NCBI GenBank assembly: GCA_947576095.1
Contig: CANPPW010000001.1
Span: forward strand, 5,109 to 69,108
Length of the DNA: 64,000 bases
Direction: 5' to 3'
DNA from: an uncultured Mycoplasmatota bacterium
Lineage (GTDB): Bacteria; Bacillota_I; Bacilli_A; RF39; UBA660
The first letter of the stretch is position 1, and each line of letters begins with the position of its first letter. Below, in pieces: positions 3,052-31,869 of the stretch. The notes under the pieces are model-generated. The model did not search any database. It had not been told where the DNA came from and saw nothing but the letters and a program-made list of their open reading frames with translations. Made by a program: the position numbers and the translations under genes.

Positions 3052-3936
3052 ATGATATTTATAATAGGTTTGTTAATCATCATTATCATATTATTATTGA
3101 TCTATCTTTTTTCTATCAAAAAGGAATTAATACGCATTAAAAAGGAAATCATTTTTTTGAAAAAGAATGATACCAATATTTATATTCATAAAGAATTATC
3201 TGTAAGGGAATTAAATCATTTAATTGAAGAAATCAATAAATTCATTAGGGATTATAACCATAAAAGACAAGAATTTGAAAATAAAAATAAGAAATTAAAA
3301 AAAATAATGATCAATATATCACATGATTTAAGAACACCTTTGACATCAGCTCTTGGATATATAGATATTGTTGTAAATGATAATTTATCAAAGAAAGAGC
3401 AAGAAAAGAACTTGAAAATTATCGAAAAAAGATTACAAAGATTAGATGAATTGATTGATTCGTTTTTTGAATTTTCTAAAATAGTATTGAATAATAAAAA
3501 GATAGAACAATCAAAAGTGAATTTGATTGGTATTGTTGAGGAATGTATAGCTCATTATTATGATGATTTTAGAAAACAAAACAGAAATATTATTTTAACA
3601 AAAAATATTTCTAAACATGATGTATTCACCAATAGAAATATGTTTATTAGAATATTAGATAATATAATTAGTAATGCATACAAACATAGCATAGGGGATC
3701 TTAGTATCTGTATTACTCAAAAAAATAAATTAGAAATCAAATTTTCTAATAAAGTATTAGAAGATTATTTAGATATAGAGCACATTTTTGATGAATTTTA
3801 TACTACAGATATATCTAGGACTAAAGGAAATACGGGTCTAGGACTAGCAATTGTAAAAGAATTTGTAGAGAACCTAGGAGGAAATATTGTTGCTAGAAAA
3901 AGGAATGATGAATTACATATCATATTAAAATTTTAA
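3052..3936 (+). CDS. intramembrane-sensing histidine kinase (short N-terminal TM, no extracellular domain)
   Basis: H-box ISHDLRTPLTSALGY, N/G boxes (GLGLAIVKEFVENLGG); forms an RR-ABC-ABC-HK cassette typical of peptide-antibiotic resistance modules. Confidence 0.85.
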   Translation: MIFIIGLLIIIIILLLIYLFSIKKELIRIKKEIIFLKKNDTNIYIHKELSVRELNHLIEEINKFIRDYNHKRQEFENKNKKLKKIMINISHDLRTPLTSALGYIDIVVNDNLSKKEQEKNLKIIEKRLQRLDELIDSFFEFSKIVLNNKKIEQSKVNLIGIVEECIAHYYDDFRKQNRNIILTKNISKHDVFTNRNMFIRILDNIISNAYKHSIGDLSICITQKNKLEIKFSNKVLEDYLDIEHIFDEFYTTDISRTKGNTGLGLAIVKEFVENLGGNIVARKRNDELHIILKF

Positions 3937-16679: not shown

Positions 16680-17312
16680 CTATATACCAAGTATTTCTAA
16701 TACCTTACTAAGCACCTCTGGTAAAATAAATGCCTCATATGCATTCATCAATAGACAACCCACTACACAGATTAAAAACACCCATAAATATTTATATAAA
16801 ATATACTTAAAATCAATTGCTTTCTTTTTTACAAAACAATCTACTAGTTTTAGAGAAAGCGTAATCGCATAATTTAATAAAACAATATAAATACAAATAG
16901 TAATAACCCCATGTGGAAAATAATATAAAAATGATAAAAGACATCCTTTCATTTTCCAGTTTAGAATAAAATTTGAAATAGAAAATCCAATTACAAACAT
17001 TTTAGAAAAATAAAGAAAAAGCATAATAGGAACTCCTATAACAGATATTCCTAAAAGCCAAATTCCTCCTAAAAATAAAAAAGTCTGAAATGTTGTTTGT
17101 ATATAACTTCTAAAAGATCCTATTTTATGCTGTTTTATATTTATGATAAATTCATTCATATATTCACGAATAAGTGTTTTATCTGCATCTTGTAATAAAA
17201 TTGTATAAAATGTACCCAATGCAATCCCAATGATTGCTAATCCAACTAGAAAATATACAACTTTTTTATTTACAGTTACTGTCTGTTTGAGCTTGTCCCA
17301 ATTTTTCTTCAT
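16680..17312 (-). CDS. spoIIM: stage II sporulation protein M-like membrane protein
   Basis: 5-TM protein; LLGISVIGVPIMLFLYFSKMFVIGFSISNFIL...GCLLSFLYYFPHGV aligns with the B. subtilis SpoIIM core. Confidence 0.6.
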   Translation of the reverse strand: MKKNWDKLKQTVTVNKKVVYFLVGLAIIGIALGTFYTILLQDADKTLIREYMNEFIINIKQHKIGSFRSYIQTTFQTFLFLGGIWLLGISVIGVPIMLFLYFSKMFVIGFSISNFILNWKMKGCLLSFLYYFPHGVITICIYIVLLNYAITLSLKLVDCFVKKKAIDFKYILYKYLWVFLICVVGCLLMNAYEAFILPEVLSKVLEILGI

Positions 17313-17485
17313 ATTATCACCTACCAAATTATATGGAACCCTATTTAAAAATATTCCTATATTTTCCATATTTTATAATAGATAAAAAAGGATATGATAA
17401 CAGATTCTAATGTAAAGAATATTTTTTAATTGTGTAAACTATTCCCTTTTTATAAAAAAAACGCTATAATAAAATTGGTGATAGT

Positions 17486-19432
17486 ATGAGTAATAAAAAG
17501 GAAAAAAATATAAAAAAAGATAGAGAAATAGATTTGGGTACCTATGTACCAGAAAGTATGATGGATCATTTGCGACAAAAAGGAAGCAGTGACTCTAATT
17601 ATAAAAGCCACCAGTTCCCTTTAGATACAGAATATTCAAATTCTAGAAAAGGGATGGAAAATATATTGTTTTTTCTAGTTATCCTTATGTTTCTAGTAGC
17701 TTGTGTTTTTTTTGGATATACAATTATAATTGGTCCAAATGATATCAAACAATTAGAACACATAATCAATAGCACTTGGCTTCTTATCTTAAGTGCAAGT
17801 ATGATGATGAGTTATATAACCAAAAACAAAAAAACAAAAAAAATAGGGACCTTTCTCTCCTCTGTTCTGATGATTGGTTTTATTAGTTTTAACCTATTGT
17901 TAAATTGTGGGATAGTCATTCTTAAACAAAATGATGTCATGAAAGACTTTACAGGAAAAACAATCACAGAAGCCATGGCATGGGCTGAAAAACATAATAT
18001 CACAATTAATCAAACATATGATAATAGCGAAGTGTTTGAAACATATGATATTATCAAACAAGATGTCTATCCAAATACACTTTTAAAAAATGTTAAAGAA
18101 ATTAATTTTGTTATTTCGGATGGTCCAGATTATGAAAAGGAAGTTTCTATAACAGATATGACAGGTTGGAATATTGATGAAGCTGTAAAAATTATTGATG
18201 AAAATTTTCTAAACCATGTTACAGTAGAGTTTGAAGAAAATAAAGAGATTTCACGTGATACCATCCTATCACAAAGTAAAAAAGGAATTATGAAGAGAAA
18301 TGAAGAGCTTATATTAAAAGTTTCGCTGGGAACTAAAGATAATATTACAGATATTGATATGATTAATCTAAAAAAAATGACAGAGTTTAAAGCCTTATTA
18401 TGGTTAAAAAGAAATGATATTCCCTATGAAATTAAAAGAGAATTTTCAGATACAATTGCTAAAGGAAAAGTTATATGTCAGGATGTTAAAACAGGAACAA
18501 CTATAAATCATGATACCACTGTTCATTTAACTATTTCGAGAGGGAAAAAAATTATTGTTCCCGACTTAACTAAAATGAACAGTAAAAATATTACCAATTG
18601 GATTGTAAAAAACAAATTAAAAGTAGAGTTTGAAGAAAAATATGATACAAAAATAAAAAAAGGAAATATTATAAGTACAAATTATAACAAAAATGATGAA
18701 ATTGAAGAAGGAACTACTATTCATATTGTATTATCAAAAGGGAAATTGATTTTACCAGGTTTTTCAAATCTAGATGATTTTAGAAATTGGGCAAAACAAT
18801 ATAATATTCTATATCGTGAAGAATATAAGCAAGATAAAAATATTAAAAAAGGAGAGATTATCGGTTTTTCTGCAAAAGAAGGAGATTCGCTGGATATAAA
18901 TGATACAATTGTGGTATATATATCTAGTGGCACTACTACAGTTATTCCTAACTTTGTTGGAATGAAAAAAGCAGATATTGAAAAGAAATGTCAAGATTTG
19001 AAAATACAATGTACATTTTATTATGCTGGTACAAGTACTAAAGATAGAGATATTGCATTGAACCAAAATAAAAAAGCAGGATCTGAAGTTCTACAAGATA
19101 CATATGTAAATATAGGACTTAGCACAGGAAAAAAGAATTCTAATAACACTAATGTAAATACTTCTCCTGTAAAACCAACAACTCCGCCTCCTTCTACTCC
19201 AACACCAGCACCTTCTTGTAAACAAAAAACGATCTATTTGAATGCTGGAGGTAGCGTAGATCAAACCAAAGCAATGATTAAAAATCAAAATCCTGACTTC
19301 AAATTTAATTTTGTAACAGGAGATCCAGGATATGGAACAAATGGATCTTTATATGCTGGTATGTTTGAAAAATATCAAGGTAAGACATTTAGTACATGTG
19401 ATACAATTACTATTTATATTGTTTCAAGATAA
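17486..19432 (+). CDS. polytopic membrane protein with about 6 tandem PASTA-like repeats, a Pro/Thr linker and a C-terminal domain; no kinase or PBP domain
   Basis: 3-4 TM then repeated roughly 65-aa units (e.g. VPDLTKMNSKNITNWIVKNKLKV); PTTPPPSTPTPAPS linker. Confidence 0.65.
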   Translation: MSNKKEKNIKKDREIDLGTYVPESMMDHLRQKGSSDSNYKSHQFPLDTEYSNSRKGMENILFFLVILMFLVACVFFGYTIIIGPNDIKQLEHIINSTWLLILSASMMMSYITKNKKTKKIGTFLSSVLMIGFISFNLLLNCGIVILKQNDVMKDFTGKTITEAMAWAEKHNITINQTYDNSEVFETYDIIKQDVYPNTLLKNVKEINFVISDGPDYEKEVSITDMTGWNIDEAVKIIDENFLNHVTVEFEENKEISRDTILSQSKKGIMKRNEELILKVSLGTKDNITDIDMINLKKMTEFKALLWLKRNDIPYEIKREFSDTIAKGKVICQDVKTGTTINHDTTVHLTISRGKKIIVPDLTKMNSKNITNWIVKNKLKVEFEEKYDTKIKKGNIISTNYNKNDEIEEGTTIHIVLSKGKLILPGFSNLDDFRNWAKQYNILYREEYKQDKNIKKGEIIGFSAKEGDSLDINDTIVVYISSGTTTVIPNFVGMKKADIEKKCQDLKIQCTFYYAGTSTKDRDIALNQNKKAGSEVLQDTYVNIGLSTGKKNSNNTNVNTSPVKPTTPPPSTPTPAPSCKQKTIYLNAGGSVDQTKAMIKNQNPDFKFNFVTGDPGYGTNGSLYAGMFEKYQGKTFSTCDTITIYIVSR

Positions 19433-22500: not shown

Positions 22501-22863
22501 TCCATAAGCAGCATGAATAGTGGTATAAGCAGCACTATCAGTTGCATTTTGAAACAATCTATGTTCATTATTGGGATTTTCAGCAAAAGGATGAGCAGTA
22601 TCATAAAGAAAACGCACTATAGCATATTTAGCATTTATGATTTCTCCCCCCTCTTTTATCACCGCCACGTGCTGAGAATCTGAAGAATGTTCTAACATAA
22701 CTTTTTTAGCTTGATTATAGTCACTATATTTACCAATAGGTTGTTCACTACCATTGCTATTTACAACGGAAACCTCATAGGGGCCCATTGCTTTTGCATT
22801 TCCCAAAAAAAGGAAAAAAACTATGCTAATTAATAATATAAAACTTCTATTTTTCCACTTCAT
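19522..22863 (-). CDS. secreted 1113-aa cell-wall hydrolase: GH73 N-acetylglucosaminidase domain plus multiple Ig-like domains
   Basis: signal peptide MKWKNRSFILLISIVFFLFLGNAKA; glucosaminidase-like block ...NALLTFSAAVNESATGSSAIAMQKNNLFGHNAYG; Big-like repeats. Confidence 0.7.
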   Translation of the reverse strand: MKWKNRSFILLISIVFFLFLGNAKAMGPYEVSVVNSNGSEQPIGKYSDYNQAKKVMLEHSSDSQHVAVIKEGGEIINAKYAIVRFLYDTAHPFAENPNNEHRLFQNATDSAAYTTIHAAYGNDAAFLDYEPNVGGKGRAKVKVSGYTGWINRGYYTVVPVSRLYGGESWVSSQDSTWFQEIGNSRIQQNSNTNITIRTGPGTQYSAIGYSSKGSIYTYIDVKKTGGLTWYKISTIPLKTYYKVSDGELRHYFATASTQGVTNLGKAPSFLASNRMYYSFDGNYYYEDLNTMLSDYRNNTYDHSINARGPYYPYYLYLSNHSRTSYTANDFNQIVINKGFKSPSDSKMYGEGANFILSQERFGVNALLTFSAAVNESATGSSAIAMQKNNLFGHNAYGNNPLANATYYNTVADSIMMHASMTGAGFNNPTDNRYYGGHYGNKSSGMNVKYATDPYWGEKMASNAYAADKDFGLQEWQGSTIGIKASFDNVPIKKQPSDQAETIYLLKNANYSVKNIPVIVTDKIYQNGKYWYKVYSDASLDDQQNITTAEYRFDKSYGYIEEKDLYVTNAQPTIIANDRVIHKGENIDLLLGVLANDPENGDITSSITISGEVYINIPGEYKITYTAEDHQHFKVSKTITVTVMGDSIPEINAQDQSISQYTSFDPKKNVSAKDAIDGDISNHIQIVENTVDINKIGSYKITYKVTNSTGKSVTKTINVQVIENEKPVIYAEDVKIAKNSTFNPLDYVTATDKEDGTIEKIEVIENSVDTTQLGKYLVTYKVVDSANQEISKTINVEVVEKVKQQKKASYYLDYIKQIGEKLEIKGYHAILGIDNVLSTKINYRIQFVDINTNQVLHEQIATRITDPKDMTMPVFSEDGKDYTYSWFKFQFDLKKVPEGNYKMYIISETDNYYAISTVSNKLFAPQATSFSGEKHVIIRNNYSSNEAPIELLIRNEKIADRTTATYSYNQFDQYLDLHFTENGQLYLKGTSYSYGSNLASNTNVIRKIIFENQKNYKKYQYDIGSITTGPYAVALPVSDHLDKTRAWYEKQIDLNDLEVGKYTIYIANASNISDVAEFKDLLNRQLHLSKKIGTKIYTFMLNSQNNNIELIVEK

Positions 22864-23016
22864 AACATCCCTCTATTCATTTACTATTATATCAAAAAAA
22901 TGTCGAATTGTATAGTAGTAAAAAAAAGAGTTCACAAATCTGTAAACCCCATATAAATGTATGCTCTTATAGTAAATATATTTGTTTTTTATTTGAAATA
23001 TTACATATAAATATTT

Positions 23017-23400
23017 CTAGTGTTGTTGCAGAACTTCACAAGTATTCTCATTATATTTAAAATTATACTGATTATTTTCAGAATTGAAAGTAATAACAAT
23101 ACACCCCTGCATAGGTTTTTTATCTCTAGGATCCAAAATTTCGTTTTTACTTAGATATTTTTCCTTTATAAGGGTATCAATCTTTAAATAATAAGCAGTT
23201 AACTCATCTATCTCTGCTGCATTTTTAACAGACCATCTTTCAGCACTCTCTTCTAAAATTTTTGTTTGTTCAATATAAGCTTTTTCCTTTCCTTTTTTTA
23301 AATTAGAAAAAACTGCAGGAGATATAATAAGTAATATAGCAGATAATATAACAATAACAGCCAAAAGCTCTACTAATGTAAATCCCATTTTCTTTTTCAT
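23017..23400 (-). CDS. type IV pilin / pseudopilin (prepilin-type N-terminal cleavage/methylation domain)
   Basis: MKKKMG|FTLVELLAVIVILS class-III signal (G-1, F+1, E+5); C-terminal Cys pair; RBS AAAGGA. Confidence 0.8.
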   Translation of the reverse strand: MKKKMGFTLVELLAVIVILSAILLIISPAVFSNLKKGKEKAYIEQTKILEESAERWSVKNAAEIDELTAYYLKIDTLIKEKYLSKNEILDPRDKKPMQGCIVITFNSENNQYNFKYNENTCEVLQQH

Positions 23401-23499
23401 AAAATCATCCTTTTCACTATTTAATATATTTGCAAATAATTATCTTATTGCTTATTTATATCTATTATATCAAACTTTAAAAATTCAAGAAAGTAAAAA

Positions 23500-23643
23500 T
23501 TATATATTCATGGAAATATATACATCATTTATTCCATTTTCCTCATTTTCCATTTTTTGAATCATCTCTGTATTAATATAAAGAAACCCTAATACCAGTA
23601 TTACAAAAATCATCATTCCTTTGCTTCTACATAACTCTTTCAT
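23500..23643 (-). CDS. 47-aa single-TM protein, candidate SOS-induced cell-division inhibitor (YneA/SosA analogue)
   Basis: strong RBS AAGGAGG 8 nt before ATG; divergent from lexA; its promoter carries a LexA box; N-in TM topology. Confidence 0.45.
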   Translation of the reverse strand: MKELCRSKGMMIFVILVLGFLYINTEMIQKMENEENGINDVYISMNI

Positions 23644-23672
23644 TATATATCCTCCTTTATTATGATACATTC

Positions 23673-23701
23673 ATTTTATCACGAACATATTTTCGTGTCA
23701 A
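23673..23701 (-). promoter_or_regulatory. sigmaA promoter TTGACA-N17-TAAAAT of the small divergent gene, with a LexA (Cheo) box in the spacer
   Basis: consensus -35/-10; CGAAAATATGTTCG (GAAC-N4-GTTC with one mismatch) lies in the spacer. Confidence 0.55.
23682..23695. promoter_or_regulatory. LexA operator (Cheo/SOS box)
   Basis: CGAACATATTTTCG versus Firmicutes consensus CGAACATATGTTCG. Confidence 0.55.
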
Positions 23702-23710
23702 GGTTTTACC

Positions 23711-23749
23711 AAACATTCGTTTGACTTTTTTATAAACATGTGTTATTAT
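23711..23749 (+). promoter_or_regulatory. lexA promoter TTGACT-N17-TGtTATTAT with a second, weaker LexA-like palindrome (AAACATTCGTTTG) overlapping the -35
   Basis: near-consensus hexamers with TG extension; the palindrome overlaps -35, typical operator placement. Confidence 0.5.
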
Positions 23750-23773
23750 GACATTATATATAAAGGAGGATTT

Positions 23774-24394
23774 ATGGAAGGATTAACCAAACGACAAAAC
23801 GAGATTTTAACTTACATTAAAGAATATATTGTTTCACATGGCTTCCCCCCTACTGTTAGAGAGATTGGTAAAGCCCTTGATGTATCATCACCAGCTACAA
23901 TACATGCTCATCTTGCTAATTTACAACGTAAAGGTGTTATAAAAAAAGATGGTTCAAAAAATCGTGCGATTGAGCTTTTGGTAGATAATGAATTTGCTAT
24001 TCAAAATGAGGAAGTCACCAAAGTCCCATTATTAGGAAAAATTACTGCTGGAAGCCCAATTGAGGCAATCGAAAGACCAGATGAATACTTTTCTTTACCA
24101 ACTTATTTAATTCCTAAACAAAAAGAAGTATTTACACTTCATGTTAGTGGAACAAGTATGATCAATGCTGGAATACTAGATAATGATATTGTAATCGTAG
24201 AAAGAAGGGAAACTGCCAAAAATGGCGATATTGTGGTAGCCATGACAGCAGATAATGAGGTAACGCTTAAAACATTCTATAAAGAAAAAGATCACTTTCG
24301 ATTACAACCAGAAAACGATACAATGAATCCCATTATTTTAAATCATGTTACTATTTTAGGTATTGCTGTAGGTCTTTATAGAAAAATTAGATAA
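23774..24394 (+). CDS. lexA: LexA repressor
   Basis: N-terminal wHTH, Ser (GTSM) and Lys (TLKTF) catalytic dyad; AGGAGG RBS. Confidence 0.9.
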   Translation: MEGLTKRQNEILTYIKEYIVSHGFPPTVREIGKALDVSSPATIHAHLANLQRKGVIKKDGSKNRAIELLVDNEFAIQNEEVTKVPLLGKITAGSPIEAIERPDEYFSLPTYLIPKQKEVFTLHVSGTSMINAGILDNDIVIVERRETAKNGDIVVAMTADNEVTLKTFYKEKDHFRLQPENDTMNPIILNHVTILGIAVGLYRKIR

Positions 24395-24415
24395 TTTTAA
24401 TCAATAAAAGATATG

Positions 24416-24459
24416 AAAAAACTAGTACAATGATTCATTTTGTAATTGTACTAGTTTTT
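24416..24459. terminator. bidirectional terminator (perfect 15-bp stem)
   Basis: AAAAACTAGTACAAT-loop-ATTGTACTAGTTTTT. Confidence 0.65.
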
Positions 24460-24478
24460 CTATACTTATAAATTATTT

Positions 24479-25504
24479 TTATAGTTGTATGGAAGAAGCA
24501 TTCATTTGATGATAGACCTCTTGAAGATAACTTTGTACTGGAACAATAAATTGTCTTTGATTTTCTATGGCATGCATACTCTTTTCCATAAAATCTTGAT
24601 AATGATAATCTGATGGATCAAATTGTGCCTGGTTTAGATGACTTTCAATCTGTGAATAAAACATATCACGATCCATATTGATATCATCAATATTTACATT
24701 CCTCATACCAGCATACTCTTCTTTCACACCTGCATTCATATTATCCAATCGATAATCAACTGTATAATACATAACCTTAAACTTACTTTGTGCAGACTCA
24801 CTTAAGTCAGAAAGCACAAAAGACTCTCCATTTTTCATTGTAATTGTCCCACCATACATAAGTGCATCTGTAACAGGATAATATTGCATAAAAACATCCT
24901 CTTTCATTTCATCTGTAAAAAAGCCTGGTGTATCTGCAATATTATAAATATATTCTTTCCAAATCGCCATATAATCTAGTGCAACAGTATCTCTTTCTGT
25001 TTGAGACATTGAACCCATGGTAGTTGCTACATCTGAAACATTAGGTACATTCACATCCTGCCATTCACTTGATATTTCATCTGTTTGCTCTATATAATTT
25101 GCATAATCGTCTTCCAAGGGTTGATTTCCTTCCATGTACTCTGGATCAATTGTCTCTTCATAATCATATTCTGAATTGATACTCTCTTCATCATAATCAT
25201 TATCATAATTTTGAATGCGACTGATTTCTTCATTTGCTTTATGATTAATAAAAGCCTGACAGCCCTTTGTAACTCCCGTTACAACAAAATATCCTAACAA
25301 AAGTCTTATACCATACTTTTTAATTCTACATCCAAAAAATGTAGAATTTCTTTTTTTATCTCTCTTTTTTTGATCCTCTTTTTCTTTTTCCTTGTCCACC
25401 TTTTTTCTTTTGCGTTCTGCTTGCCTATCCATACCAGATTTTATATCCTCATAATACTCATGAACTTGCTGTGCTCTTGCCGCAGGGCCACCTAAATTTG
25501 CCAT
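24479..25504 (-). CDS. hypothetical type-II (N-in) single-pass membrane protein with K/E-rich cytoplasmic N-tail and about 260-aa extracytoplasmic domain
   Basis: TM segment YGIRLLLGYFVVTGVT; no recognisable domain; 3-nt gap to queH suggests an operon. Confidence 0.5.
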   Translation of the reverse strand: MANLGGPAARAQQVHEYYEDIKSGMDRQAERKRKKVDKEKEKEDQKKRDKKRNSTFFGCRIKKYGIRLLLGYFVVTGVTKGCQAFINHKANEEISRIQNYDNDYDEESINSEYDYEETIDPEYMEGNQPLEDDYANYIEQTDEISSEWQDVNVPNVSDVATTMGSMSQTERDTVALDYMAIWKEYIYNIADTPGFFTDEMKEDVFMQYYPVTDALMYGGTITMKNGESFVLSDLSESAQSKFKVMYYTVDYRLDNMNAGVKEEYAGMRNVNIDDINMDRDMFYSQIESHLNQAQFDPSDYHYQDFMEKSMHAIENQRQFIVPVQSYLQEVYHQMNASSIQL

Positions 25505-25507
25505 ATT

Positions 25508-26110
25508 TTAACCTTCTTTCTTCTTTGAGTAAATACACCCACAATAATTTTGTCTATATAAGTGATAGATAGAAGACAACTCTATAGATCTTTTATATCC
25601 ATCTTTCTTTTTAAAATCAGCAAACAAATAAGAAATACCATACTGATTTGCCAATTTCTGTCCAATTTCATTTAATTTATCTGCATTTTTATAGGGACTA
25701 ATAGATAAAGTTGTTGTAAAATAATCATATCCGTTTTCTTTTGCAAAACATGCTGTCTGATTCATTCGCAGTTCATAACAACGAAAGCAACGAATGCCTC
25801 CTTCTGGCATTTCCCTAAAAGATTCAATTGTTTTTTCAAATAAATTATTTTCATATGGAGCTTTCACTGTTTTAACATTTAGCTTCATCTTTTCAATCAA
25901 CTTTTCTAATTCATCGTACCTTTTATTAAATTCTGTTTCAGGCGATATATTAGGGTTGTAATAATAAATGGTAATATCAAAATAATCGCATAGCTTTTCT
26001 AGCACTGCACTACTACAAGGTGCACAGCAAGCATGTAATAATAATCTCTTTTTCCCTTTCAAAGCAAGAATTTGAGATTCCATTTTTTGTTGATAATTTA
26101 CTTTCATCAT
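25508..26110 (-). CDS. queH: epoxyqueuosine reductase QueH (DUF208)
   Basis: LLLHACCAPCSS and YYYNPNI motifs; start overlaps the stop of the rhomboid gene. Confidence 0.7.
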   Translation of the reverse strand: MMKVNYQQKMESQILALKGKKRLLLHACCAPCSSAVLEKLCDYFDITIYYYNPNISPETEFNKRYDELEKLIEKMKLNVKTVKAPYENNLFEKTIESFREMPEGGIRCFRCYELRMNQTACFAKENGYDYFTTTLSISPYKNADKLNEIGQKLANQYGISYLFADFKKKDGYKRSIELSSIYHLYRQNYCGCIYSKKKEG

Positions 26111-27249
26111 TAAATTCCAATAAGTGCCAAATATCCAATAAACACTACATATATTATTAAAACAATCCAACCATTGATTTTTTCAAAAGTAGAACTTTTA
26201 TATTTGACACCTAATGCCATGGTTGATAAAACCCCACCTACAAGTCCCCCAATATGGGCTGCATTATCAATACCAGAAATGAAAAAACCAATTCCTAAAT
26301 TTAATAAAATTAATGGTATAATTTGTGACTTTATAACCGTTCCTAAATAAACTCTATAATAAAATCCAAAGTATAAAAGAGAACCCAATAATCCAAAGAT
26401 AGCACCAGATGCTCCAAGCGAAGCGGAACTATCCCCCATAAAAATCATAGATAAAAAACTACCACATATACCACTTATCATATAAACAAATATATATTTC
26501 CATTTTCCCAAAAATCCTTCTAATTGCGAACCTATAATATAAAGTGCATACGCATTACATAGAAAATGTAATAAATGATAATGCAAGAAAAAACTTGTTA
26601 TAATTCTATAATATTCTCCTGTAATATGAACACGATTTACTAGAAATAGACTTTCTACAAAATGATCATCTAGTTTAGCAAGTAAAAACAAAAATATATT
26701 GATAGCTAACAAAACATAAGTAATAATCGGTGTTTTGGGTTTAAATACATCTTCATTCTTTTTCGCTTCCACTTCACTTTTTTGATTAATATCACTTGTG
26801 AGTTTTATAAAAAGTTCTGCTCCCTTTTCATCAAAATTTGTTTCATTTAAAATTGCTGGGAAAGCATTTTTTATAAAATCATTTTGCTGTAAGTCATCCA
26901 TGGATTCCAACTGAATACAATCAATACTTTTCATCTGCATCTTTTCTATTCTTTTAACATTTTCACCAAGATTTACAAAAATACTTAAAGTGTGCAAATC
27001 AAAGGAAATTGTTTTCTTTTTAATTTTTTTTAATATGTGTTTTGTTCTAAATAAATCATACTGAAATTGTTCATCATTATGAATATAATTAGAAACAATT
27101 CGAATAATTTTATAGTTTTCTTCTAAATTTTCTAACCAAATTTCATTTTGAGCACCATGGAGAATAATAGGAGTATACCCTTCCCCAATAAAATAGTGTA
27201 AAAGTTTCATAACAAGTTCATCTGTTTTTCCAATAATAATGTTATTCAT
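26110..27249 (-). CDS. rhomboid-family intramembrane serine protease with N-terminal cytoplasmic domain
   Basis: GASGAIFGLLG (catalytic Ser) and AHIGGLVGG (His) in a 6-TM core. Confidence 0.8.
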   Translation of the reverse strand: MNNIIIGKTDELVMKLLHYFIGEGYTPIILHGAQNEIWLENLEENYKIIRIVSNYIHNDEQFQYDLFRTKHILKKIKKKTISFDLHTLSIFVNLGENVKRIEKMQMKSIDCIQLESMDDLQQNDFIKNAFPAILNETNFDEKGAELFIKLTSDINQKSEVEAKKNEDVFKPKTPIITYVLLAINIFLFLLAKLDDHFVESLFLVNRVHITGEYYRIITSFFLHYHLLHFLCNAYALYIIGSQLEGFLGKWKYIFVYMISGICGSFLSMIFMGDSSASLGASGAIFGLLGSLLYFGFYYRVYLGTVIKSQIIPLILLNLGIGFFISGIDNAAHIGGLVGGVLSTMALGVKYKSSTFEKINGWIVLIIYVVFIGYLALIGI

Positions 27250-31092: not shown

Positions 31093-31869
31093 TTATAAAA
31101 TCATCTTTTTAATATGATCCAGCCCACTTTTTTCTAATCTAGAAATTTGAGCCTGACTAATGCCAATTTCTTCAGCAAGTTCCATTTGTGTTTTTCCCAT
31201 AAAATATCTTTGAAGTAAAATATACTTTTCGCGATCCTTTAGCTTCTGAATTGCCTGTCTTAGCATAACCCTATTTTCTAAAGAAAATTTTGCTTCTTCG
31301 CGATCTTCTAATTGATCCACTAAATAAATCGTGTCTCCCCCATCATTATAGATGGGCTCATACATACTAATGGTATCTTTTAAAGATTCTAAAGCATTAT
31401 TAACCTCATATTCTGTAAGATTGAGTTCATGAGCTACCTGTGAAATACTTGGTTCCCCATCTTGTTTGTTCATCATTTCTTCTTTTTTCTTCAAAATTTT
31501 ATATGCCTGTTCTTTAATACTTCTTGAAACACGTAAACTTCCATTATCTCTTAAAAATCTTTTGATTTCTCCAACAATCATAGGGCAAGCATATGTTGAA
31601 AATTTTACTTCAAAATTTAAATTAAAATTATCAATTGCTTTAATAAGACCAATACACCCTACTTGGAATAAATCATCCATATTATCTGTTCGTCCTGTAT
31701 AATTTTTCAAAATAGATAAAACCAATTTTAAATTTCCTTGAATCAATAATTCTTTGGCTAAAGTATCACCACTTTGATACTTTTTAAATAGTTCAATCAT
31801 TTCTTCATTACTCAATACTTTAATATTCGCAGTATTCACGCCACATATTTCTACTTTATGACGTGCCAT
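31093..31869 (-). CDS. sigG: sporulation sigma factor sigma-G
   Basis: N-terminal KVEICGV, DDLFQVGCIGL, KFSTYAxPMIVGEIKRFLRDN, EPIYNDGGD, GKTQMELAEEIGISQAQISRLEK; all match B. subtilis SigG blocks. Confidence 0.8.
   Translation of the reverse strand: MARHKVEICGVNTANIKVLSNEEMIELFKKYQSGDTLAKELLIQGNLKLVLSILKNYTGRTDNMDDLFQVGCIGLIKAIDNFNLNFEVKFSTYACPMIVGEIKRFLRDNGSLRVSRSIKEQAYKILKKKEEMMNKQDGEPSISQVAHELNLTEYEVNNALESLKDTISMYEPIYNDGGDTIYLVDQLEDREEAKFSLENRVMLRQAIQKLKDREKYILLQRYFMGKTQMELAEEIGISQAQISRLEKSGLDHIKKMIL

Follow-up and report, generated by a model that had tools for sequence, protein, structure and literature searches.

The 64-kb window, by which we mean the whole stretch of DNA analysed here, carries a lexA gene and, divergent from it, a very small open reading frame (ORF), which raises the question of whether this ORF is a genuine gene under LexA control and what its product might do. 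In Gram-positive bacteria, SOS division inhibitors are co-localised with lexA though their sequences diverge; they have one transmembrane segment and several of them carry a LysM domain (PMC6851548). The lexA gene of the window (23774..24394, plus strand) encodes a protein of 206 aa with the Pfam domains LexA_DNA_bind (1.3e-23) and Peptidase_S24 (5.5e-33), which matched solved LexA structures at 6e-36. Alignment to the LexA structure 3k2z revealed the Ala-Gly cleavage site (ITAGSP), the serine in GTSM and the lysine in VTLKTF. Judged from its sequence, the gene is a genuine, intact lexA with its own conserved box. The lexA promoter is located at 23721..23749 on the plus strand and consists of TTGACT (23721-23726), a spacer of 17 nt and TGtTATTAT (23741-23749), exactly as a first-pass annotation of this DNA had described it.

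The coding sequence assigned to the small membrane protein extends from an ATG at 23643..23641 to a stop codon included at 23500 (23500..23643, minus strand) and its translation is MKELCRSKGMMIFVILVLGFLYINTEMIQKMENEENGINDVYISMNI, a protein of 47 aa. The ORF listed by the program is longer, with a start nine codons earlier at 23670 (56 aa); this start was rejected since transcription probably begins downstream of it and relatives have not kept it, and the 47-aa start is favoured because the relatives open with MKE(I/L)L.SK. A Shine-Dalgarno sequence, AAGGAGG (23651..23657, minus strand), is found 7 nt before the ATG, and relatives have a GGAGG-like site at the same distance from the start of the small ORF. 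Further upstream are the -10 hexamer TAAAAT (23673..23678, minus strand), with TG ahead of it, and, after a 17-nt spacer, the -35 hexamer TTGACA (23696..23701, minus strand), for which the consensus of the relatives is ATTGACACGAACAAnTGTTCG. This promoter matched 11 of 12 positions and was the best promoter-like site in 22700-24600, a region of AT-rich DNA in which 13 such sites were observed and 12.7 expected. Therefore, the ORF, its ribosome-binding site and the TTGACA-17-TAAAAT promoter divergent from lexA were all found as the first-pass annotation had stated. The small gene is present as a single copy within the window, the window DNA is identical to several metagenomic contigs and 13 metagenomic contigs carry a called gene for the identical 47-aa protein.

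A one-mismatch Cheo box had been claimed for the spacer of the small-ORF promoter and, indeed, a candidate LexA box of the Cheo type (box 1, 23682..23695), reading CGAAAATATGTTCG on the minus strand and CGAACATATTTTCG on the plus strand, fills this spacer and abuts the -35 hexamer. When up to one mismatch to CGAACNNNNGTTCG was tolerated, box 1 was the only site found in the 64 kb, against a chance expectation of 0.11, and 9 of 100 shuffles of the window held at least one match of this quality. With two mismatches allowed, the window contained 6 matches versus 3.75 expected, which is not above chance. A weight matrix for LexA boxes was built from the relatives only, with the window left out; under this matrix box 1 scored 11.4 bits and was the second best match in the window, the mean maximum of random 64-kb sequences being 12.5 bits. 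Since 11.4 bits is within the chance range, the case for box 1 is made by its position and its conservation and not by its score. In the window, box 1 departs from the consensus by having GAAA for GAAC, a position at which the nearest relatives have GAAT; the GAAA half-site is retained in the sister contig L076. A 14-mer identical to box 1 was found in the region between lexA and a LysM gene in two Lachnospiraceae loci (L057 and L060).

A second candidate LexA box (box 2, 23710..23723, CAAACATTCGTTTG) overlaps the -35 hexamer of lexA and is a putative autoregulatory operator. It was the top matrix match of the window with 19.4 bits. The first-pass annotation had noted a second palindrome at this position and called it the weaker one: the palindrome is there, but under the matrix of the relatives it is the stronger of the two (19.4 versus 11.4 bits). 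The matrix scan that had been suggested as a check on the boxes gave a divided result, with box 2 on top, but box 1 second and within the chance range. A third palindrome, TAAACATGTGTTAT (23733-23746), was rejected as an operator, as it scored 3.4 bits and coincides with the TG-extended -10 of lexA. The scan of the 64-kb window for further SOS genes revealed nothing convincing outside the lexA region; the matches at 586, 10372 and 44182 were discarded as SOS sites because all of them lie inside coding sequences.

To describe the conservation of this arrangement, 52 lexA loci of related uncultured gut Bacilli, RF39-like metagenome-assembled genomes (MAGs), were compared. The LexA relatives at 60-85% identity all came from MAGs, which carry the labels uncultured Bacilli, Tenericutes or Erysipelotrichaceae; Candidatus Pelethosoma and Candidatus Coprosoma are among them. 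From this we take the window to belong to an RF39-like lineage of the gut. A split lexA in one locus (L082) was considered as a natural lexA-null and dismissed, the break being a run of N in the scaffold. A single-helix ORF of 33-53 aa (median 47) was found in the equivalent place and orientation in 42 of the 52 loci and was absent from the other 10, so that the conservation check proposed for the small ORF turned out positive. All 42 loci have a GGAGG-type ribosome-binding site, and in the encoded proteins a short N-terminus of basic character is followed by a single hydrophobic stretch and a polar tail, ~20 residues long. At the position of box 1, the number of mismatches was 0 in 6 loci, 1 in 27, 2 in 6 and 3 in 3; a Cheo-type box with at most two mismatches is therefore present in 39 of 42 loci, abutting the -35 hexamer in nearly all of them, and the box starts 45-50 nt ahead of the ATG in 36 of 42. 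The consensus derived from 41 loci anchored on the -35 hexamer reads ATTGACA, CGAACAAnTGTTCG and TnnTAnnAT in direct succession, the box filling the spacer. On the other side, (C/G)AAACAnnTGTTTGAC is located ahead of lexA in about 49 of 52 loci, and the centres of the two boxes are 28-29 bp apart in most loci. These features provide a clade-specific model of the LexA operator, with CGAAC-N4-GTTCG as the spacer site and AAACAnnTGTTTGACA as the site that covers the -35 hexamer of lexA.

The small gene also bears the marks of a translated sequence. Among 18 pairs of relatives, dN/dS was computable for 17 (the last pair had no synonymous differences) and ranged from 0.09 to 0.73, below 1 in every case, and the numbers of substitutions at the first, second and third codon positions were 228, 138 and 287; dN/dS values below 1 and the excess at third positions together argue that the translated sequence is under purifying selection. 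The protein diverges fast, with 47% identity where LexA has 84%, and a direct search with the 47-aa protein returned only itself and one relative of 81% identity. A profile made from the locus-derived relatives was required to detect the wider family. In a database of 5.8 billion proteins this profile retrieved 108 clusters (90% identity), all unnamed and with no Pfam domain, and among 1.84 billion representatives it retrieved 203 clusters (50% identity), whose proteins measure 43-52 aa in nearly all cases; the few longer members resemble proteins with mis-called starts. The small membrane protein thus belongs to a family of at least 203 clusters, all of them unnamed. For the 47-aa protein of the window itself, neither Pfam (E<=0.01) nor NCBIfam gave a family. 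Taking promoter, box, reading frame and selection together, we hold it to be very probable that the small gene is real, is repressed by LexA and encodes a membrane protein.

The hydrophobic stretch of the window protein has a mean Kyte-Doolittle value of 2.1 over 17 residues. The net charge is +2 on its N-terminal side and -4 in the tail, the means over the 42 loci being +1.6 and -0.4. Structure prediction gave a single unbroken helix from residue 4 to residue 45, with a pLDDT of about 90 for residues 11-30 and a tail that is not confidently modelled. An N-terminus inside and a C-terminus outside are predicted from the positive-inside rule; of the single-transmembrane layout attributed to the protein by the first-pass annotation, the basic N-terminus, the one helix and the polar tail are reproduced by prediction, but the orientation comes from this rule only. 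A family profile of 238 distinct sequences, whose positions are used for numbering here, revealed an N-terminal motif M-K-K-x-L-x-N-x-G-G, conserved residues in the helix (G10 80%, F14 80%, Y15 83%, G21 68%), a juxtamembrane motif N-x-R-F-x-x-L-N with R28 conserved to 85% and, after a linker rich in N, S and E, a C-terminal motif Y-I-[AS]-M-N-[KN] in which N48 is conserved to 90%. The window protein has kept the glycines, the phenylalanine and the C-terminal YISMN and has lost the conserved arginine; its subfamily has NTEM in the juxtamembrane segment, where NARD or NLRF is found elsewhere. The conservation of small and aromatic residues within the helix suggests that the helix has a specific helical partner and is not a mere anchor. 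No conserved cleavage site of the A-x-A type was found after the helix in the family alignment.

Is the gene tied to lexA or to its other neighbours? Two family members retrieved by protein similarity alone, P0038 (L077) and P0009 (L080), are both encoded divergently from lexA, and their control regions share the layout of a TTGACA hexamer followed by a box. The genes downstream of them differ, with MGDG synthase and tkt on one of the two contigs and rpsB-tsf on the other. The small gene is linked to lexA itself and not to any particular neighbour. About 22 of the 42 loci have the transketolase gene, tkt, as the next gene on the strand of the small ORF. In L001-L003 it lies between the small ORF and a gene for a prepilin-like protein; the window has no tkt there, and its small ORF is directly followed by the prepilin-like gene, a layout shared by the sister contig L076, which encodes the 81% identical protein. 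In Virgibacillus the order is lexA, divergently a 30-aa transmembrane ORF, a resolvase gene (YneB-like), a DUF896 gene (YnzC-like) and tkt, and the Lachnospiraceae loci have a gene for a transmembrane and LysM protein divergent from lexA. Because the Virgibacillus order matches, the small gene of the RF39-like bacteria occupies the yneA slot between lexA and tkt, and the earlier statement that the ORF sits where yneA-type genes are found is borne out by these loci.

The prepilin-like protein of the window (23017..23400, minus strand, 127 aa, Pfam N_methyl 2e-05) may be co-transcribed with the small gene by read-through. Nothing resembling a terminator was found from 23500 to 23400; the first such site is located at 22950..22927 on the minus strand, and read-through into the prepilin-like gene is therefore possible. 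The downstream gene has a promoter of its own, with the extended -10 TGATATAAT at 23464..23472 (minus strand), 28 nt past the stop codon of the small ORF, and TGnTAnAAT occurs within 150 nt past that stop codon, mostly at 20-50 nt, in 25 of 42 loci. The prepilin-like gene was rejected as the real SOS target, because tkt intervenes in L001-L003 and because the gene downstream, which varies between loci, carries an extended -10 itself. By inspection, a hairpin with a T-run was seen right behind the small ORF in L011, L013, L069, L041, L048 and L046.

Among the closest characterised systems is SosA, a protein of 77 aa without LysM domain whose C-terminal part is extracellular; it is encoded divergently from lexA and controlled by LexA, is conserved just past the helix and at the extreme C-terminus, and is turned over by CtpA in dependence on that extreme C-terminus (PMC6851548). 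Homology of SosA within Staphylococcus amounts to 25-60% identity. The small protein resembles SosA in being encoded divergently from lexA and in having conserved regions after the helix and at the C-terminal end, but, in a comparison made by description only, it has 47 instead of 77 aa and a tail of ~20 instead of ~45 residues, and it comes from an RF39-like lineage. Among the 1.84 billion representatives, a library without names, the profile matches were nearly all of 43-52 aa and no identifiable 77-aa protein was among them.

YneA of Bacillus and Listeria (about 105 aa, transmembrane segment plus LysM domain, PRK14125) shares with the small protein the lexA-divergent slot on the tkt side, the LexA boxes and the N-terminal helix. 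Unlike YneA, the small protein has no LysM domain, a claim of the first-pass annotation that we can confirm: Pfam gave none at E<=0.01, and the tail of ~20 residues compares with 43 profile positions of LysM. As a control for this search, the Lachnospiraceae gene of L057 scored LysM at 1.9e-08. The NCBIfam model of YneA, PRK14125, did not match the window protein, and among 39 relatives it matched one at an E-value of 0.068, which is chance level. Comparison by hhalign with the transmembrane and LysM proteins from lexA loci gave a probability of 50% over 26 columns covering only the N-terminus and the helix; a value of this kind over a helix region is not usable as evidence, and no homology to YneA or to LysM-type proteins could be demonstrated. 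YneA is localised to the septum by its transmembrane helix, which binds transmembrane helix 7 of FtsW, and YneA deprived of its LysM domain still localises but fails to inhibit division (PMC13396833); it is degraded by CtpA and YlbL (PMC6051672). Since YneA needs its LysM domain to inhibit, the mechanisms of the small protein and of YneA cannot match fully, and since YneA without LysM does not inhibit, possession of a helix and a short tail does not by itself make a protein an inhibitor.

That a soluble domain can be nearly absent is demonstrated by SidA of Caulobacter, a single-helix inner-membrane protein of 29 aa that is SOS-induced and blocks division by way of late divisome proteins, FtsW and FtsN, and not of FtsZ (PMC4211646); for both SosA and SidA, FtsW has been predicted or shown to be the target (PMC13396833, PMC4211646). 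SidA and the small protein are alike in being very small with a single helix; they differ in that SidA is alphaproteobacterial, has an unrelated sequence context and has no tail motif like Y-I-A-M-N. By analogy, the most suitable reading of the small protein is that of a new and minimal family within the class of SOS membrane division inhibitors, not that of a YneA member. The first-pass annotation had proposed a new minimal member of this class, and the protein would be the shortest candidate of the Firmicute type and form a separate family, but the concept is not new, since the LysM-less SosA and the 29-aa SidA exist (PMC6851548, PMC4211646). New here is an unnamed sequence family within a known kind, and to specialists a protein of this sort beside lexA would come as no surprise; the family is of value for being so small, for having well-defined motifs and for its uncultured host lineage. 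No paper tying RF39-like bacteria to an SOS division inhibitor was found in the literature.

The window further encodes a Mur ligase, MreC, a PASTA-repeat protein, a polysaccharide deacetylase and a glucosaminidase of 1113 aa. The presence of these wall and shape genes argues that the host makes peptidoglycan, probably with a rod-shape machinery, and would thus offer a target to an inhibitor of septal wall synthesis. We saw no FtsW, class B penicillin-binding protein or CtpA-type protease in the 64 kb of the window, and no S41 protease among the window ORFs scanned.

On balance, and with limited conviction, we favour the view that the small protein is an SOS-induced membrane division inhibitor, in analogy to YneA, SosA and SidA. 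The locus would then consist of two SOS promoters back to back. In undamaged cells, LexA dimers would occupy both Cheo-type boxes, 28 bp apart: LexA on box 2 would cover the -35 hexamer of lexA and bring about autoregulation, and LexA on box 1, within the 17-nt spacer, would exclude RNA polymerase from the small gene. After DNA damage, activation of RecA would lead to self-cleavage of LexA and both promoters would be switched on. The small transcript would have a 5' leader of ~20 nt and a strong ribosome-binding site, and its product of 47 residues would insert with the basic N-terminus inside, a helix spanning residues ~9-27 and, outside, an acidic tail ~20 residues long. The helix could dock on the late divisome, most plausibly on FtsW and the class B penicillin-binding protein, and the juxtamembrane segment and the tail might halt septal wall synthesis until repair is complete. 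The C-terminal Y-I-[AS]-M-N may contact the target or mark the inhibitor for removal by a membrane protease; the conserved C-terminal end of the family recalls that of SosA, whose C-terminus controls its turnover.

Other explanations were weighed against this proposal. E. coli has LexA-regulated peptides of 29 and 27 aa, encoded by tisB and dinQ, which are type I toxins with antisense or small-RNA antitoxins that depolarise the membrane and whose loci are patchy and often multicopy. A toxin of this type, the main rival to our proposal, would dissipate the proton motive force and render damaged cells dormant, leaving the divisome untouched, and a LexA-boxed promoter driving a single-helix peptide of less than 50 aa is what the two systems have in common with the small gene; the features observed here suit a pore former as well as a divisome binder. 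Unlike them, however, the small gene is single copy in the window and strictly tied to lexA at a conserved core-genome position across the clade. Likewise, no known antitoxin RNA was detected: Rfam gave no family at threshold in 22800-24500, with two sub-threshold chance matches only, and the conserved motif past the stop codon of the small ORF is a same-strand extended -10 and not an antisense promoter. Since, in addition, the conserved tail, the C-terminal motif and the glycine and aromatic positions point to protein-protein contacts, we regard a membrane toxin as rather improbable. It is hardly credible that the ORF is non-functional, a chance frame or a leader, and that the LexA promoter serves the downstream gene (tkt in relatives, here the prepilin-like gene). 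AT-rich DNA does yield many promoter-like sites (13 versus 12.7 expected) and, with no terminator-like site between the stop at 23500 and the next gene, read-through is likely, but an open frame of 44-53 codons and a GGAGG site have been kept in 42 loci even though stop codons are rich in A and T, dN/dS is below 1 with an excess of third-position substitutions, and helix and motifs are conserved; moreover, the gene that follows differs between loci and usually carries an extended -10 itself, and several relatives have a hairpin and a T-run right past the small ORF.

A different role at the membrane or outside the cell is unlikely, though it has some features of the protein on its side. The small protein could modulate a membrane protease, a transporter or a wall enzyme, or it could be a signal sequence with a C-terminal peptide that is released; a basic N-terminus, a hydrophobic stretch and a polar tail suit a signal sequence as well, the extreme C-terminus, Y-I-[AS]-M-N-[KN], is the most conserved polar element, and the family is without homology to any characterised protein. 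On the other hand, the alignment holds no conserved A-x-A site after the helix, the hydrophobic stretch of 17-20 residues with its conserved positions is typical of a stable anchor, and yneA-type genes occupy this very position between lexA and tkt. One could go further and imagine an exported SOS signal, a short peptide ending in Y-I-[AS]-M-N-[KN] that would be released, with the basic and hydrophobic N-terminus as its export sequence, and by which DNA-damaged cells would warn or manipulate neighbours; this idea, to which we give very little credence, arises because the extreme C-terminus is the sole strongly conserved polar element and no homology links the family to an inhibitor.

Annotators gain a defined, unnamed family of ~47-aa proteins with at least 203 clusters, and its motifs offer targets for mutation, namely Gly10, Phe14/Tyr15, Gly21, the juxtamembrane N-x-R-F-x-x-L-N and the C-terminal Y-I-A-M-N. 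If the function as an SOS-induced division inhibitor holds, the small protein would be the shortest example of the Firmicute type, with a helix, ~20 further residues and no wall-binding domain, and it would be a compact natural probe of the minimum that is needed to shut off septal wall synthesis. The rule that a small membrane checkpoint protein is encoded beside lexA would then reach the RF39-like Bacilli, a large, uncultured and genome-reduced lineage of the gut.

The gene that follows the small ORF, the 47-aa predicted single-helix membrane protein gene divergent from lexA, is the transketolase gene tkt in most relatives, but it is missing from this place (23400-23500) in the window and in the sister contig L076. 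At the lexA loci L001-L003, the order is small ORF, tkt and a prepilin-like gene, whereas in the window the small ORF is followed directly by the prepilin-like gene without tkt between them. Compared to the arrangement in L001-L003, tkt looks to have been deleted or relocated in the window. The prepilin-like gene (23017-23400, minus strand) codes for a protein of 127 aa whose N-terminus carries the methylation motif of prepilins (MKKKMGFTLVELL...), and no further pilus or competence genes were evident among its immediate neighbours. A gene resembling it is also found 3' of the small ORF in the distant locus L034.

In L034, the small ORF lies ~120-180 nt upstream of lexA, whose match begins at 545, and is broken after four codons (ATG AAA AAG AAA TAA); past the early stop, the typical sequence of the small-ORF family goes on in a shifted frame. 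The break is a frameshift in an A-run, due either to an assembly error or to the ORF being a pseudogene. In L049 (Virgibacillus chiguensis), the place expected for yneA, the SOS division-inhibitor gene of Bacillus and Listeria, holds no more than an ORF of 30 aa (~3745-3837, minus strand; MFQKLTKTDAFYLVAFALTLGFLYYSIIMS), which has a single hydrophobic stretch and is flanked by lexA on one side and a resolvase/DUF896/tkt row on the other. Two Cheo boxes are located upstream of this ORF, which could represent yneA in truncated form or a further minimal variant. In L082 (763-1370), lexA looks divided into genes of 50 and 150 aa beside an intact small ORF; mutation was ruled out as the cause of the split, the break being a stretch of Ns within the scaffold.

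The exact 14-mer of box 1 (CGAAAATATGTTCG), the putative Cheo-type LexA box in the small-ORF promoter spacer that has a GAAA instead of a GAAC half-site, is also present in two genomes of Lachnospiraceae, where it lies in the region separating lexA from a TM+LysM gene. Its recurrence in these lexA upstream regions (L057 and L060) suggests that an operator with the GAAA variant of the half-site is tolerated.

The window encodes three intramembrane proteases, which would in principle be candidates for processing small single-pass proteins: a rhomboid protease (26110-27249, minus strand) 1.7 kb from lexA and two M50 (site-2) proteases (58122-58763 and 62850-63884, both minus strand). An S41 (CtpA-like) protease was not seen among the scanned ORFs of the window. 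Convergent with lexA is a gene (24479-25504, minus strand) for a highly acidic protein of 341 aa that contains a single hydrophobic segment and matches no Pfam family; this gene adjoins lexA in L081 and L084 as well. Five PASTA repeats are present in another protein encoded in the window (17486-19432, plus strand; 648 aa), in which no kinase or transpeptidase domain was detected at E<=0.01; PASTA proteins lacking both are unusual. Further, a SpoIIM-family protein (16680-17369, minus strand) and a sigma-70-type factor of 258 aa (31093-31869, minus strand) are encoded in the window, and the genes that come after the small ORF in L017 resemble, as judged by eye, spoIIGA and sigE; these genes hint at sporulation genes in this lineage.
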